Virus record (IMG/VR): IMGVR_UViG_2872180393_000003
Location: 1-12,621 of that record
DNA length: 12,621 nucleotides
Reading direction: 5' to 3' (one strand)
DNA from: a virus
Lineage: Duplodnaviria > Heunggongvirae > Uroviricota > Caudoviricetes
Both the position numbers and the translations under genes were made by a program. Below are positions 7,248 through 12,621 of this stretch, piece by piece (position 1 is the stretch's first letter; each line of letters starts with the position of its first letter). The notes below the pieces were generated by a model. That model did not search any database and was not told where the DNA came from. It worked only from the letters and a program-made list of their open reading frames with translations.

Positions 7248-7718
7248 TTACGGAGCGATATGAGACGCGCCCGCGTCTTTTTTCATATCGTTTGCACAGT
7301 CACATTCGCGATTTATGGTGGGCTGTGTGGGGGAGCCGAAACCGATAACCATTTCTTTGTTGAAGAGACAAAGCGAGCAGGCCAGTCCGATCGCGGTCCA
7401 ACTGAGCCCCATTTCACGGGATTTTTCGGTAATACCATTCTCCCGATTGCTCCAGCGTTCCATAATCCAGTGGATCCACTCCTCCTGCTTAGGGAAGAGT
7501 AAAAACGGAATGGTCACCGGCAGGCCATAATCAATATTACGCGGGTCCGTTGTCATGCCCCAGCCGATAATGAACTGAGCCGGGTTGGTACGGTAAAACT
7601 GTTTTAGTGCAGGCAATATTTCAGGATTCTGGCGAATGCGCTGTAGGCGTTCCATCCGCCATTCAAAAACCATCTGGTAATCAGGATGTTTAAAATCGAA
7701 GGGGAATGGTAACGGCAT
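7248..7718 (-). pseudogene. phage terminase large subunit, N-terminal fragment only
   Basis: ATG 7718 overlaps the terminase small subunit stop. The N-terminal 125-130 aa look terminase-like (...[13 protein letters not shown]...), but the ORF stops after 156 aa where terminase large subunits are 400 aa or more. The last ~30 codons run through junction sequence containing a hairpin. Confidence 0.65.
7263..7283 (+). terminator. orphan terminator-like hairpin with T6 tail, plus strand
   Basis: AGACGCG-CC-CGCGTCT followed by TTTTTT. There is no plus-strand gene upstream, and it is not terminator-like on the minus strand (A-run precedes the hairpin). Confidence 0.35.
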
Positions 7719-7720
7719 AC

Positions 7721-8278
7721 TTAGCCCATCATTTTTCTATACACCTCTGCGGCCTGCTCAGGCGTTAATTTGGTAATTTCTGTTCTGACTGGTCCTCCGT
7801 CAGCGCCAGTCACTTCATTTTTGACGTTGTCTTTAAACGCCTGAACAGAAACATGACGCCCAAGCAACTCAAGGTTTTTAACCTTATCAGGCCATTTGAT
7901 TTTCTTCAGAAGTGCGGCGCTATCTGCGGATACCATCTCCACGACATCCATTCCTGATAGCGTTGTGCGCCATACCTTCTTAGGCCAGTCTTTAATGGGC
8001 TTTAGCTCACCGTTTTGCAAGAGAATGTCGAGCACATCCATCTGGTCGATTTCAACCAATCTACGAAGAACATAGGCGGCATCTATACCCGTCTGCTCAA
8101 CGCGGGCGGATTTAAGTTCAGCAACGAATTTTTGAACATTAACATTTGCTAATAATCGAGATGCCTGCTCATTGGCGGTCTTCTCGCTGTAGCCCGCCCT
8201 GATAGCTGCCTGTGTGCCGTTCAGATCTTTCAGGTACTCACGGGCAAACAGCTCTTGTTTGTCGGTGAGCTTTGCCAT
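7721..8278 (-). CDS. phage terminase small subunit (P27-type)
   Basis: 185 aa [43 protein letters not shown]..., the N-terminal signature of P27-family small terminases. GGAG lies about 9 nt upstream of the ATG. Confidence 0.85.
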
Positions 8279-8300
8279 TATTTGTGCTCCGTTTATCCGT

Positions 8301-8380
8301 TAAAAGGGATATCAGTTAAGTTATCCCGTGTAGGGTATAAGCCATTATCAAGCCCACCAGTAGATGGGCTTTGTAATGGC
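8301..8380 (-). other. structured intergenic region upstream of terS: compound inverted repeat plus a hairpin with T-run
   Basis: 8341-8380 is GCCATTA-caa-AGCCCA-8 nt-TGGGCT-tga-TAATGGC (7-bp outer and 6-bp inner stems). 8306-8327 is GGGATA-10 nt-TATCCC, followed on the minus strand by TTTT. Confidence 0.4.
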
Positions 8381-8637
8381 TACTTCGCTTTTGCTTCCGC
8401 TCGCTTACGCCGGCGCTCTTCTTTCCTCTCGGCTTTTGCCATGTCCATGAATGTCTGCATGATCGAGTTCCGCATCATGTAGCTAACAAAGTGATGATTG
8501 ACACAGCCGTTGAGGCGCAGCTGCTCGCCAAACTCATCCACCGAGGCCAATGCTTCCATCATGCCCTTCTCGCCTTTCATGAACTCTGAGAAGTCGCGCC
8601 CCGCTCTGGAGGCGCATTCAATGACACGATCACTCAT
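8380..8637 (-). CDS. small basic protein of unknown function, co-transcribed with the KilA-N gene
   Basis: 85 aa with a lysine/arginine-rich C-terminus (KAERKEERRRKRAEAKAK). Its ATG overlaps the KilA-N stop (ATGA). No function recognised. Confidence 0.5.
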   Translation of the reverse strand: MSDRVIECASRAGRDFSEFMKGEKGMMEALASVDEFGEQLRLNGCVNHHFVSYMMRNSIMQTFMDMAKAERKEERRRKRAEAKAK

Positions 8638-9131
8638 CCCGGAAGCCCGGGGATCGTTATCTGCAGCTGGTTAGCCAGGGAGTTAATCTCAGCGACCAAC
8701 ACTGGCTTCGTATAGCGCCATGCCGCCAGCCCTTGTCCACAGAAGTTCGCCATATCTTTTTTCTGATCAAACTCATGACACTTCATATTGAGCTGCGCAC
8801 TTAAGCTGTTGCGATGCTGAAGTTCTCCGGTGAAGTAGTCATCCAGGACTTTATAGGCTGCATATTTAAATCCGGGGTTTAGCCATGCTGCATAATCATA
8901 AGCAACAAACTTCCCGCCATATGTTCCACCGTGTACACCGCGCTCAGTAAAAACCACAGATTCGTGGTTTTTCTCCAGCTCGGCTAAGAACTCTTTGGTC
9001 TGCTTGTTTCGCAGGTAGTGGTACGGAGATTCAGATTCACTTTTACCACTGGCTTTCCACATATCAGTGAGGCAGATCATTCCTGATTCATCAACACGGA
9101 TCGGTGTATTAAAAAGCGTGATTGCTTTCAT
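8634..9131 (-). CDS. KilA-N domain protein
   Basis: 165 aa whose N-terminus (MKAITLFNTPIRVDESGMICLTDMWKASGKSESESPYHYLRNKQTKEFLAEL) looks like a KilA-N/APSES-type DNA-binding domain. Sits between the lysis cassette and terminase, a common cargo position. Confidence 0.65.
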   Translation of the reverse strand: MKAITLFNTPIRVDESGMICLTDMWKASGKSESESPYHYLRNKQTKEFLAELEKNHESVVFTERGVHGGTYGGKFVAYDYAAWLNPGFKYAAYKVLDDYFTGELQHRNSLSAQLNMKCHEFDQKKDMANFCGQGLAAWRYTKPVLVAEINSLANQLQITIPGLPG

Positions 9132-9336
9132 GGCGTCTTTACCTTTTAGAAAGATGAGCCTGTTCGCACAGAAAAGCCGTCCCCGAGATGGTCGCCACCA
9201 TATACGGCAATTCTCAGGCTCAGCTTTCTGAAAGACTCGGGGTTTATATGCGCTGCGATGCGCGGTTTACTGCGGACATATAAAAGCCCCGCAAGTGCGA
9301 GGCTCATTAAATGGACTTTGTGATTTGCAAAAAAAT

Positions 9337-9804
9337 TTATTTCAGGCACTGAGTCCTGATGTACTCCTGAAGCATTCTCAATGCTGTCTGGTCGCTGATG
9401 ATTCCGTCCCGGATACCGAGAACGTTTCGTCCAGCAACTGGAGAGAGTTCGACGGTGGCATCATTGCCCATGCCGGAGGCGCTGGAGGTTTCGGCTGAGG
9501 ATGGCACAGGGCATTTTCCTTTGACGAGCACCCGACCACCATTATCAAGCTTGCGCCGAAGAGCATCATTTTCAGCTTTCGCATTGGCTAACTCCTTCGT
9601 GTATTTAGCATCGAGTGCATCAGCAGCACGCTGGCGCTGCTGCATGTCAGTAATGGTTGCGTTCGCCAGCTTCAGTTCTCTTGCGTTTTTGTCGCGCTGC
9701 TCTTTGTAGGTAATGGCGTTATCACGGTAATGATTAACAGCCCATGACAGGCGGACGATGATGCAGATAACCAGAGCGGAGATAATCGCGGTGACTCTGC
9801 TCAT
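9337..9804 (-). CDS. Rz: Rz (i-spanin)
   Basis: 155 aa [26 protein letters not shown]... with an N-terminal TM segment and a coiled-coil-like body. ATG overlaps the endolysin stop (ATGA). The track ORF from 9816 is over-extended. Confidence 0.8.
9378..9584 (-). CDS. Rz1: Rz1 (o-spanin lipoprotein) embedded in Rz in the +1 frame
   Basis: [21 protein letters not shown]... with a lipobox (VVGC) and a proline-rich mature part ([11 protein letters not shown]), lying wholly inside Rz. Confidence 0.65.
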
Positions 9805-10298
9805 TGCTGCCCCCACAAACAGACTTCACGCTCAATCTCATGACGGGTCATCAGCCCTTTCCATTGCTTACCGCCAGCATATGTCCAGCGACGTAGCTGG
9901 TCACATGCGCCTTTGATATCGCCCTGGTTTATTTTGCGAAGAAGCGTCGATGTTCTGAAATTGCCAGCGCCCACGTTGTAAACGAACGAGTAAAGAGCGC
10001 CGCGCGTTGTTTCCGGTATATCGACTTTGATGTACGGGTTAATTTGTCTGGCGACAGTGGCAAGGTCTTTATTCAGGAGAGCTTTGCATTCTGCTTCGGT
10101 ATACGTTTTACCAGGCATGATGTCTTTTCCGGTGTGTCCGTGACATACAGTCCATACACCAATGATATCTTTGTATGGTATGTAGCTGACACCTTCCAGA
10201 CCATCGTTACCACCTGGGCCAGTGATTAACACAGATGCTATAGCAACAGCCCCGCCACCAATAGCAACTGCAACAGCCTTGCGTAATGATGGCGACAT
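9801..10298 (-). CDS. R: SAR endolysin (phage 21 R-type lysozyme)
   Basis: 165 aa [57 protein letters not shown]...: a glycine/alanine-rich signal-anchor-release segment followed by a lysozyme core. Confidence 0.9.
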
Positions 10299-10513
10299 TA
10301 TTCACCTCTCGCAGCCTTACGCTTGTCTTCTCTTAATTTGAAATACAGATTCGTCAGATAAGTCAGAAGCCCCAGAAGCAGACTTCCCAGCACACCAATC
10401 GCAGCCCACTGTGATGGACTGACCTGATCCAACCACTGCAAAAACCAGTAGCCGGCACTGCCGGCGGAGGTGCCGTAGGCAATGCCCGTTGAAATTTTGT
10501 CCATGGATTTCAT
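10298..10513 (-). CDS. S: class II holin (phage 21 S-type) with dual-start motif
   Basis: 71 aa [71 protein letters not shown]. Two in-frame starts (M1, M4) as in the S21 holin/antiholin pair. GGAGGTGAGG Shine-Dalgarno upstream; the stop overlaps the R start (TAATG). Confidence 0.9.
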
Positions 10514-10629
10514 AGCCTCACCTCCGCAAATAACGGATGGCGTAGTTCTTATATTGGGAAGGGAAAAAAAAGGCCGCAGCGTAACTGTCACTGATGAATT
10601 CAGGATAGCCAGTGGCTACGGCTCAGTTA

Positions 10630-10705
10630 TGGTGCTGGTTAACGGACTTGAACCGCTACCCATTCGCTTACAAGGCGACTGCTCTACCATTAGAGCTAAA
10701 CCAGC
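10630..10705 (-). tRNA. tRNA-Thr (anticodon UGU), 76 nt with encoded CCA
   Basis: Manual cloverleaf: 7/7 acceptor pairs, D stem GCTC/GAGC, anticodon loop CTTGTAA, T arm AGCGG-TTCAAGT-CCGTT, discriminator A plus CCA. One mismatch in the anticodon stem. Confidence 0.7.
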
Positions 10706-10710
10706 ATATT

Positions 10711-10785
10711 TGGCGGGACAGCGTGGACTCGAACCACGATAAGAAGGTTAACAGCCTTCCGTAATGACCTTTATACGACTGACCC
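10711..10785 (-). tRNA. tRNA-Asn-like (anticodon GUU), with mismatches; possibly a pseudo-tRNA
   Basis: Anticodon arm GAAGG-CTGTTAA-CCTTC and T arm CGTGG-TTCGAGT-CCACG are canonical, ending G-CCA, 5 nt upstream of tRNA-Thr. The acceptor stem has one T-T mismatch and the D stem one mismatch. Confidence 0.5.
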
Positions 10786-10974
10786 AAATAAAAAATCTCG
10801 AAAGCAGGCTCTATTCCTATGTGCTCTCGAGTTTATGATGCGCATGTCAGTGCGCTTAGCGAAAAACGCCGTAAACCCTCGCCCGACAGGGCGGGGAGCA
10901 GTCACAACTTAAAGATGAGGTGGGTAAAAAACCGAAAGAATGTGAACGGATATAAACCTGCCATTCTTGAGTCA

Positions 10975-11003
10975 AATTTACCCAACTTTATTCAAAAAGT
11001 CAA
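10975..11003 (-). promoter_or_regulatory. late promoter pR' (lambda-like), with overlapping qut-type region
   Basis: Minus strand reads TTGACT - 17 bp - TAAATT followed by TGACTCAAG, very close to lambda pR' as recalled, about 43 bp downstream of the Q stop. A weak hairpin plus T6 run (10926-10968) follows, a possible short tR'. Confidence 0.6.
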
Positions 11004-11045
11004 TATCATGCCGTTAAGATGTTGCCATCCGTGGCAATCATGCCG

Positions 11046-11422
11046 CTAACGTGTGACCGCATTCAAAATGTTGTCTGCGATTGACTCTTCTTTGTGGCAT
11101 TGCACCACCAGAGCGTCATACAGCGGCTTAACAGTGCGTGACCATGTGGGTTGGGTGAGGTTTGGGATTAGCATCGTTACAGCGCGATATGCTGCACTTG
11201 CTGGCATCCTTGAATAGCCGACACCTTTGCATCTTCCGCACTCTTTCTCGACAACTCTCCCCCACTGCTCTGTTTTGGCTATATCAACTGCCAGACCTGT
11301 TCCGTGGCAATCTCTGCATCTTGCGCCCGGCGTCGCGGCACTACGGCAATAATCCGCATAAGCGAATGTTGCGAGCACTTGCAGTACCTTTGCCTTAGTA
11401 TTTCCTTCGAGCTTTGCCACAC
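11046..11422 (-). pseudogene. Q: late antiterminator Q (lambda type), C-terminal ~125 codons only; N-terminus replaced by the IS600 end
   Basis: ...AKLEGNTKAKVLQVLATFAYADYCRSAATPGARCRDCHGTGLAVDIAKTEQWGRVVEKECGRCKGVGYSRMPASAAYRAVTMLIPNLTQPTWSRTVKPLYDALVVQCHKEESIADNILNAVTR matches the lambda Q C-terminal zinc-finger region as I recall it. The frame runs into the IS600 right end at 11423 with only a TTG start inside the IS. Confidence 0.75.
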
Positions 11423-11464
11423 TGAGGTGTACTGGCAATAGCGGACACTACCATTTGTTCTTTT

Positions 11465-12283
11465 TTAAGCAGCCATCTGATGATATTTTTCCCTGAAGGC
11501 TGCCGGGGAGATATTCCCCAGACGAGAGTGACGACGCTGACGATTGTAGAAAATCTCAATGTATTCCCGTATTACTGAGATGGCTTCATCCCGGTTATTA
11601 AAACGATAGTGGCTCAGGCTCTCATTTTTCAGCGTTCCCCAGAAGCTTTCCATCGGAGCGTTGTCGTAACAGTTACCTTTACGCGACATTGATGTTTTCA
11701 GACCAAACTGCTCCTGTATGACCCGGTAATCGTATACGCAGTACTGTGAACCTCGATCAGAGTGGTGGATTAGCCCGGCAGGTGGGCGCTGGCTCCTGAG
11801 CGCCATAAACAGGGCTTTACCTGTCAGCTCTTTTGTCATTCGCTCTCCCATGGCGTAGCCGACAATTTCGCACGTATAAACATCTTTGATGCCAGCGAGG
11901 TACAACCATCCCTCCTGTGTGGCAACATACGTCAGGTCCGCCACCCAGACCTGATTTGGTGCTGTAGGAGCGAACGTCTGGTTCAGCAGATTTGGCGCAA
12001 CTGGCAGATTGTGGTTCGGGTTCGTAGTCGCTCTGAACTTGCGTTTCTGCTTACAGCGTAGCCTTAGCTCCTTACGAAGACGTGCCAGTCGGTCACGACC
12101 AACGATGATGCCATTCTCTGCCAGCTCCGTCTGGAGCCGCCGGGTTCCATATGTTTCGCGAGTGCGGATATGTGCCACCTTAATCTCCAGTTTTAGCCGC
12201 TCATCACTTTGTTTTCTGTCTGAGGGTTCATGCTGTACCCGGTTGTAATAACCGCTCCTGGATACACCAAATACCTGACACAT
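11465..12283 (-). CDS. IS600 OrfB (copy 2; W15R and A183V relative to copy 1)
   Basis: 272-aa ORF identical to copy 1 OrfB except for two substitutions. Confidence 0.9.
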   Translation of the reverse strand: MCQVFGVSRSGYYNRVQHEPSDRKQSDERLKLEIKVAHIRTRETYGTRRLQTELAENGIIVGRDRLARLRKELRLRCKQKRKFRATTNPNHNLPVAPNLLNQTFAPTAPNQVWVADLTYVATQEGWLYLAGIKDVYTCEIVGYAMGERMTKELTGKALFMALRSQRPPAGLIHHSDRGSQYCVYDYRVIQEQFGLKTSMSRKGNCYDNAPMESFWGTLKNESLSHYRFNNRDEAISVIREYIEIFYNRQRRHSRLGNISPAAFREKYHQMAA

Positions 12284-12318
12284 CGCTTCAATGGGAAATT
12301 GTTGTCGCCATTGTTCGA

Positions 12319-12621
12319 TTAACGCGTATTTTTCAGCGACTCCTGTGCAAAATACGCTGTTGCTTTTTTTAATATATCTCGCTCAAGGCGAGCTTCATTT
12401 AACGCCTTACGCAGTTGCAGAATTTCAGATTCCAGTTCAGCCACCGTGCGGGAACCAGGAGTACCGAGCCCTTTTCTGGCGGCGGTAACCCATTGTCCTA
12501 AAGTGCCTTCAGGAAGGGATAATCGGGAAGCGCCTTCACTGATCGAAAGTTGATTTTCAAGAACCGTTCTGACAGCTTCGGCTTTGAACTCTTTAGAGTA
12601 ACGTTGGGTTTTTCTGCTCAT
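12319..12621 (-). CDS. IS600 OrfA (copy 2); start codon is the last triplet of the window
   Basis: 100-aa ORF identical to copy 1 OrfA. The T7 run at 12364-12370 is the complement of the frameshift site. Confidence 0.9.
   Translation of the reverse strand: MSRKTQRYSKEFKAEAVRTVLENQLSISEGASRLSLPEGTLGQWVTAARKGLGTPGSRTVAELESEILQLRKALNEARLERDILKKATAYFAQESLKNTR

Follow-up and report, generated by a model that had tools for sequence, protein, structure and literature searches.

A phage 21-type tRNA-Asn/tRNA-Thr cassette in the late leader of a scrambled lambdoid prophage, and its putative role in counter-defence

Several lambdoid phages carry, in the leader of the late transcript, a gene for tRNA-Asn(GUU) in tandem with one for tRNA-Thr(UGU). 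In the phage 21 record the pair stands right behind the late promoter pR', the Q-binding element (QBE) and the terminator tR', and in front of the S21 pinholin gene; the Sf6 record has the same layout, and the SfI paper describes the pair, citing Sf6, ST64T, PS3 and p21 (PMC3636060). The cassette is already known from GenBank records and papers, and a function for its Thr member was published in 2025. The subject here is such a pair in a window of 12,621 nucleotides, the whole stretch of DNA that was analysed (Caudoviricetes virus record IMGVR_UViG_2872180393_000003 of IMG/VR, positions 1 to 12,621), where it lies between pR' and the holin gene of a prophage remnant.

The published function concerns defence nucleases that cut tRNA. 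The Old protein of P2 (P2-OLD), the effector of P2-lambda interference, kills by cutting thrU, the host's only UGU tRNA, at paired CNG motifs (Govande et al., 2025, PMC12445682). Cells exposed to P2-OLD are rescued by phage tRNA-Thr(UGU) species, and the tRNA-Thr of phage 21 both resists cleavage and protects (PMC12445682). The pair of changes that alters the CNG motif in phage 21 tRNA-Thr is C28U/G42A; introduced alone into thrU it gives no protection, and anticodon mutants of a protective tRNA-Thr lose protection, i.e. the activity is decoding-dependent (PMC12445682). Host tRNA-Asn is a slower substrate of OLD (PMC12445682). AriB of the PARIS system targets tRNA-Lys(UUU) as well as tRNA-Thr(UGU), with tRNA-Asn(GUU) more weakly, and cuts between nucleotides 40 and 41 in a UAAUC|A context (PMC12409363). 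HepS is another nuclease directed against Thr isoacceptors, and the HepS paper is silent on these phage tRNAs.

The Asn-Thr pair as a late-leader cassette

The pair in the window is very probably the late-leader cassette of the phage 21/Sf6/P22 type, with counter-defence as its best-supported job and stranded in its present setting. In the whole window ARAGORN calls two tRNA genes and no others; they lie on the minus strand, Asn followed by Thr in transcription order, with a 5-nt spacer between them. Both score above the gathering score of Rfam RF00005 (29 bits), which places them in the elongator tRNA family (Table 1). The synthetase identity elements set out by established E. coli tRNA biochemistry are present in each, namely G34, U35 and U36 with G73 in tRNA-Asn, and G1:C72, C2:G71, G35 and U36 in tRNA-Thr. 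A sequence-only reading of this DNA had predicted two phage-borne tRNAs between pR' and the holin, and both programs accept them. It had also noted mismatches in the acceptor and D stems of the Asn tRNA, and these are real: U4·U69 in the former and U13·U22 in the latter. Its statement that tRNA-Thr folds cleanly is nearly right, the fold having one mismatch, G27·A43, at the top of the anticodon stem.

Over 156 nt the pair is 98.7-99.4% identical to that of phages 21, Sf6, SfI and HK446, and it is annotated or present also in mEp506, Kapi1, BTP1 and many P22-like Salmonella phages. The phage records that hold it, 61 in number, are lambdoid, P22-like or SfI-type, and 369 of 5426 complete E. coli genomes contain it. 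The tRNA-Asn sequence is identical in phages 21, Sf6, L, JLK-2012 and HK446. The tRNA-Thr sequence shows a single difference from the phage 21 gene, a base in the D loop, and has the same anticodon arm. With the pairs of phage 21, Sf6, SfI, HK446, mEp506, BTP1, ST64T and PS3, that of the window shares gene order, the 5-nt spacer, the place directly after tR' and a downstream hairpin block; with phage 21 and SfI it has the S21 pinholin and R21-type endolysin in common as well. Unlike phage 21, the window has a Q and a pR' of lambda/HK446 type rather than 21-type, an IS600 copy cuts its Q short and the prophage around it is scrambled.

Blocks shared with lambda flank the cassette on both sides, the pR'/tR' tail (pR' 93% identical) before it and the post-tRNA hairpin (92%) after it, and lambda has an unrelated 163 nt in its place. 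Could those 163 nt be a decayed tRNA pair? This was rejected, as a global alignment gives z 1.7 (29 of 500 shuffles are as good) and a relaxed Rfam scan finds no tRNA there. The cassette occurs with lambda-type or 21-type Q and with S-lambda or S21 holins and, judged by these sequence comparisons, it behaves as a mosaic module.

The pair is also found in altered forms. In the ST64T/L/PS3/ST160 lineage tRNA-Asn is unchanged and the second tRNA is remodelled; that of phage L (L012, 786-857) is annotated as tRNA-Leu(TAA), with an Rfam score of 42 bits and no ARAGORN call. It follows that tRNA-Asn can be retained where its partner is no longer a canonical tRNA-Thr. The tRNA-Thr gene of JLK-2012 (L004, 3586-3661) is chimeric, the 5' 26 nt being phage-like and the remainder near-identical to host thrU; ARAGORN no longer calls it and Rfam gives it 49 bits. 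One IMG/VR contig has a chimeric tRNA-Thr as well. The chimeras carry the OLD-sensitive ACUGA/UCAGU-type arm, and their existence points to recombination between phage and host tRNA genes. An expanded cassette, Asn-Phe-Thr-Arg(UCU) and sometimes Gly, is present in Klebsiella phage ST16-OXA48phi5.2 (L013, 901-1220) and in IMG/VR loci; it occupies the same Q-holin slot and has the same Thr arm, and its Asn arm reads CAG/CUG with both CNG motifs.

Outside this family the Asn-Thr tandem recurs in P7/P1, and in N4-like phages tRNA-Ser lies between the two. The P1/P7 pair, which belongs to the C1-controlled ban operon, resembles the present one in the tandem of Asn then Thr, the short spacer and a tRNA-Thr that is about 80% identical. 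Operon context differs, however, as does the P7 tRNA-Asn, which comes from another lineage and has an acceptor stem paired throughout, together with UAAUC|A; the P7 tRNA-Thr keeps CUG/CAG and a full 5-bp stem. In P7 (L014, 825-978 and 1621-1736) and in JLK-2012 (L004, 3506-4738) the tandem is followed by a gene of the tellurite/colicin-resistance type (terB/tciA), and by a match to the small RNA (sRNA) STnc100 (107 bits in JLK-2012, 43 bits in P7). These features hint at a larger shared module.

A probable counter-defence role for the tRNAs

How does the Thr member compare with the protective tRNAs? Its anticodon arm is GUCGC/GCGAA, with UCG/CGA at 28-30/40-42 and the unpaired G27·A43, whereas thrU has ACUGA/UCAGU, with CUG/CAG and a full stem. 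It shows the features of the tRNA-Thr21 class, i.e. the UGU anticodon, the change C28U/G42A within the paired CNG motifs at nt 28-30 and 40-42, and a stem of reduced length. Among tRNAs known to act against P2-OLD, tRNA-Thr21 and tRNA-Thr6, it is alike in the UGU anticodon, and with tRNA-Thr21 the whole arm is identical, including C28U/G42A and the shortened stem.

A scan of viral contigs returned at least 120 loci, and 114 of the matches listed belong to the cassette family, with 20 distinct variants each for Asn and Thr; all counts of genes and variants given here are among the matches listed. The arm GUCGC/GCGAA is present in 92 of 98 viral Thr genes. All 20 Thr variants have 27:43 unpaired and keep 28:42 and 29:41 without change, and the acceptor and T stems covary. 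Selection on the resistance determinants would be expected to leave such a pattern. By analogy, the tRNA-Thr allele of the window would behave like that of phage 21, as a nuclease-resistant replacement.

The following sequence of events may be envisaged for a live phage. The pair would be transcribed only when Q-modified RNA polymerase reads through tR', and host tRNA-processing enzymes would presumably cut both tRNAs out of the late transcript. The Thr member could then replace thrU, the tRNA at which the P2 Old Toprim nuclease is chiefly directed and one of the main targets of PARIS AriB. The resistance of the Thr member would come from its altered anticodon stem, in which C28U/G42A leaves no paired CNG motif and G27·A43 makes for a shorter stem. 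Extra decoding of ACA, for phage genes rich in this codon, would be a likely side benefit. There is a parallel in the tRNA-Lys, tRNA-Thr and tRNA-Asn of T5, which act against PARIS AriB, in that the pair of the window covers two of the three main AriB targets. Unlike the known nuclease-resistant phage tRNAs, however, the window has no tRNA-Lys, and its tRNAs lie in the late operon of a temperate phage rather than in the tRNA battery of a large virulent one.

Is the Asn member a passenger? Host asnT has both CNG motifs (CGG/CCG) and UAAUC, and the common phage Asn allele has neither (AAG/CUU, C39). A tentative suggestion, on the unlikely side, is that the Asn member serves as a second resistant replacement, in this case of the host's tRNA-Asn(GUU), which OLD and AriB each attack as a secondary target. 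The suggestion arises because the arm lacks CNG and UAAUC, because host tRNA-Asn is a substrate of OLD and AriB, and because the Asn-Thr tandem recurs in P7/P1 and N4-like phages. The wider proposal that Asn is no passenger, and that Asn and Thr together make a minimal kit of two tRNAs against OLD/PARIS-type Toprim tRNases, is a doubtful one. U4·U69 and U13·U22 could be further features that hinder recognition. As the pair is boxed by tR' and a hairpin followed by eight U residues (hairpin-U8), leak-through from the constitutive pR' could feed a trickle of resistant tRNAs to lysogens without lysis genes being expressed, and such a supply might persist even in Q-dead remnants such as that of the window.

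Several points weigh against counter-defence as the job of the pair. For the Thr member, the window allele is one D-loop base away from the phage 21 tRNA-Thr used in the published tests. In those tests protection was by plasmid expression and rescue was only partial, and escape of phage 21 itself from P2 interference is not reported (PMC12445682). Lacking tRNA-Lys(UUU), at which PARIS is primarily directed, the pair cannot alone defeat the PARIS system of B185. Timing is a further difficulty: the tRNAs are produced late, yet it is the early genes that are richest in ACA and the early Gam function that triggers OLD. For the Asn member, the anticodon stem varies freely, and both CNG motifs are found in 12 of 114 loci, mostly those with Asn-Phe-Thr-Arg; furthermore, the P7 tRNA-Asn has a perfect AriB motif, UAAUC|A, and the P7 Thr keeps CUG/CAG. 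Two general rules were tried and rejected: that all coliphage Asn and Thr tRNAs escape AriB by a U39/N41 change, which fails on this same P7 tRNA-Asn, and that tRNA-Asn must avoid CNG, which fails in the Klebsiella-type variants.

Codon supply, RNA processing, decay and toxin cargo

Might the pair only boost the decoding of ACA and AAC/AAU codons? Pure codon supplementation is somewhat unlikely, and would not be exclusive with counter-defence. In lambdoid genes ACA makes up 10.4-18.0 per 1000 codons, against 3.6 in the ribosomal and elongation factor genes and 5.8 in the ordinary genes of K-12, so it is two to three times commoner; thrU is the sole UGU tRNA in MG1655 (PMC12445682), and the SfI paper reports the same ACA bias (PMC3636060). 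However, lambda, which has no tRNAs, shows an ACA excess equal to that of HK446, which has them, and the excess is largest in early genes, transcribed before the tRNAs. The host, moreover, has several tRNA-Asn genes, which counts against supplementation for Asn. Asn codons are barely enriched and show no AAC bias, and the SfI authors likewise found no Asn bias (PMC3636060). Supplementation also leaves the invariant G27·A43 and the UCG/CGA arm unexplained. It is a plausible side benefit for Thr, but does not explain the pair. A further possibility is that the tRNA folds serve mainly as RNA-processing signals, by which the leader is severed from the lysis mRNA, or as the edges of modules in mosaic exchange. 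The cassette does sit exactly between the conserved boundary blocks and is swapped among Q and holin types, and the chimeric tRNA-Thr genes of JLK-2012 and one IMG/VR contig (phage 5' part, host thrU remainder) attest to recombination with the host gene. Yet a processing signal would need no conserved anticodons, identity elements or encoded CCA, lambda manages without the cassette, and the demonstrated activity of the Thr member depends on decoding, being lost in anticodon mutants (PMC12445682); the idea is therefore improbable.

The sequence-only reading had proposed that the Asn tRNA may be decaying, and had seen in the locus a toxin-free relative of Shiga toxin (Stx) phages, or one that had lost its cargo. 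Neither proposal fared well. That the Asn gene, or both genes, are decaying pseudogenes would accord with the non-canonical pairs (two in tRNA-Asn and one in tRNA-Thr) and with the dead prophage around them, and erosion of a second tRNA is real elsewhere, in phage L/ST64T (42 bits) and JLK-2012 (49 bits), both missed by ARAGORN. But an intact-looking E. coli prophage matches the 166-nt query across the two tRNAs at 100% identity, and phages 21, Sf6, L and HK446, all of which propagate, have the Asn gene with no base changed. Compensatory changes, moreover, surround the persistent mismatches: in the 20 Asn variants nine pairs, with 29 cells, show compensatory double changes (none of 500 shuffles is as high, and slid controls reach at most two pairs), and in the 20 Thr variants five pairs, with 13 cells, do so (again none of 500 shuffles). 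U4·U69 is unpaired in 18 of 20 Asn variants and U13·U22 in all 20, while 5:68, 6:67 and 7:66 covary. Since the mismatches persist where neighbouring pairs covary, they are to be taken as conserved traits of the family, and decay is very improbable. Loss of Stx-like cargo, or descent from a toxin-free Stx-phage relative, has just as little to commend it. The slot is indeed the one between Q and S that Stx phages use for tRNAs and stx, as had been noticed, and no toxin gene is present. The mlrA/yehV gene that adjoins the prophage is also the site used by the Stx1 prophage of O157. JLK-2012, a 57-kb phage with yjhS/DUF1737 in the slot, reads Q, Asn, Thr, tRNA-Gly, tciA, tciB, yjhS and then S. Against this, none of the 61 phage records holding the pair is, by record name, a Stx-converting phage, and phage 21 and SfI are collinear with the window from tRNAs through spacer to holin, at 92% identity; alignment to cargo-free phages is what the sequence-only reading itself had named as refuting it. 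The 116-nt spacer (10514-10629) has no open reading frame (ORF) of its own, as had been predicted, the 97-aa ORF there being an upstream extension of the holin frame; it contains neither stxAB nor another cargo ORF, and is fully accounted for by the lambda-shared hairpin block and the S21 ribosome-binding region, with no leftover. As phage 21 is collinear and the intact-looking E. coli prophage has the same Q-tRNA-holin layout, the arrangement is canonical and not a deletion scar. Cargo loss is thus not supported, nothing being missing at the tRNA-to-holin junction.

The 933W-type locus itself resembles that of the window in the slot between Q/pR'/tR' and holin, and in having tRNAs on a Q-dependent late transcript. 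Its tRNAs in that slot are presumably ileZ-argN-argO, accompanied by stx2AB. If so, the Asn and Thr identities of the window differ from the 933W set and the tRNA segments would be unrelated in sequence; the window has no toxin or other cargo. The Q-S slot is a moron hotspot, and the lineage of the window has the plain version of it.

The stranded prophage and its surroundings

Features of the window are listed in Table 1. The late operon runs on the minus strand, from IS600 through the Q remnant, pR', the tR'-like terminator, the tRNAs and hairpin-U8 to the lysis genes, and beyond these lie a KilA-N gene, the small terminase subunit and a truncated large terminase subunit. The block of Q end and promoter is 93% identical to lambda. 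The tR'-like element folds at -14.4 kcal/mol (z -2.5) and its tail resembles lambda tR'; a terminator is annotated at the same place, directly before tRNA-Asn, in the phage 21, Sf6 and phage L records. The second hairpin, of -23.4 kcal/mol (z -4.1), is matched by none of 200 shuffles and was in part flagged by the terminator scan. Its 61-nt block, 92% identical to lambda, is kept in phage 21, Sf6 and HK446. In the window and phage 21 a terminator-like U-run of seven to eight follows the block; lambda (L010, 1146-1206), Sf6 and HK446 have the block without the U-run, and about 180 nt of further leader instead. The holin region has 92% nucleotide identity to S21 of phage 21.

Table 1. Positions of features in the window
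Feature	Position	Strand	Remarks
tRNA-Asn(GUU)	10711-10785	-	75 nt, G73, CCA encoded; ARAGORN, Rfam 55.3 bits (E 6.7e-10)
tRNA-Thr(UGU)	10630-10705	-	76 nt, A73, CCA encoded; anticodon arm GUCGC/GCGAA; ARAGORN, Rfam 63.2 bits (E 4.5e-12)
tR'-like intrinsic terminator	10786-10831	-	hairpin 10797-10831 and AUUUUUUAUUU run; ends one base before tRNA-Asn
pR' late promoter	11003-10975	-	sigma-70, TTGACT-17-TAAATT; promoter scan; homologous site in HK446 annotated 'similar to lambda PR''
Conserved long hairpin and U8	10564-10622	-	hairpin 10572-10622, U8 10564-10571; terminator-like, between tRNAs and holin
S21-type class II holin (pinholin)	10298-10513	-	71 codons, dual start Met1/Met4; PF04971 on identical sequence (L007)
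R21-type signal-arrest-release (SAR) endolysin	9801-10298	-	165 aa; PF00959; homologue is lysozyme RrrD in RefSeq; collinear with phage 21 SAR endolysin
Rz spanin gene with embedded Rz1	9337-9816	-	Rz1 at 9378-9584; PF03245 Phage_lysis (L007), PF06085 Rz1 (called on L006)
Q antiterminator 3' remnant	11046-11421	-	lambda-type, pseudogene; C-terminal 124 of 207 codons
IS600 copy	11422-12621	-	runs off window end; replaces 5' third of Q; transposase ORFs of 272 aa and 100 aa
Second IS600 copy	1917-3181	+	inverted relative to the first
mlrA (yehV)	1-702	-	adjoins prophage; product called at 233 aa
Integrase	723-1671	-	split into two ORFs, pseudogene
Toxin-antitoxin pair	6498-7206	-	inside nin region; Gp49/HigB-like toxin (PF05973) and helix-turn-helix antitoxin
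isrK Hfq-binding sRNA	7207-7283	+	full-length match; Rfam RF01394, 70.6 bits against 50
Chimeric ORF	7248-7718	-	156 aa

On its sequence the window is a scrambled, IS600-riddled prophage remnant, whose own Q should no longer be able to switch on the late genes. The Q remnant matches the 207-aa Q found in the FDAARGOS_943 prophage over residues 84-207, with 124 of 124 identical, DNA homology ends at 11422, and the IS600 that begins there is 99.5% identical to an annotated IS600 of FDAARGOS_943. The 166-nt two-tRNA segment, pR' and tR' are all intact. With the first 83 codons of Q gone, transcripts begun at pR' should end at tR', and the cassette is probably silent or expressed by leak-through only. 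Intact in sequence, the pair is thus in all probability stranded, with tR' leak-through as its one route to expression; as a speculation, hairpin-U8 could halt leak-through transcripts before the holin.

The two inverted IS600 copies flank the phage DNA; the left one stands in for everything between the integrase and the replication O gene and the right one truncates Q. The IS600 load suggests Shigella as the probable host. The early region contains O', a DnaB-like helicase, ninB, dam, ninE, the toxin-antitoxin pair and isrK, and is preceded by the second inverted IS600, the frameshifted integrase and mlrA, where the Stx1 prophage of E. coli O157:H7 has its attachment site. In RefSeq annotation the toxin-antitoxin pair of the relative is a type II system of the RelE/ParE family. 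The isrK gene adjoins the pair and ends about 58 nt short of an inversion junction near 7341, where the late block adjoins the oppositely oriented early region and no IS element is found; the chimeric ORF there sets the truncated large-terminase gene tail-to-tail with the early region. In the FDAARGOS_943 relative ant, rusA, ninH and the 5' part of Q lie downstream of isrK, and these are missing in the window. The unique isrK/terL' junction had no match in the genome contigs searched. By exact-protein look-up the window is 100% identical to CP026846.1, which has the same scrambled prophage, and CP026845.1 has the same inversion junction with Q intact. The inversion therefore predates the IS600 hit in Q.

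What, then, does the locus signify? As found, it matters little, being a tRNA pair in a textbook position, already described, in a dead prophage, and its value is corrective. Toxin cargo is not to be taken as lost just because a tRNA occupies the Q-S slot, and stem mismatches in phage tRNAs can be selected anti-nuclease features instead of signs of decay. If the Asn member is also nuclease-resistant, the Asn-Thr pair would constitute a compact counter-defence module of temperate phages, one that is widespread in lambdoids, with Asn-Thr tandems also present in P1- and N4-type phages.

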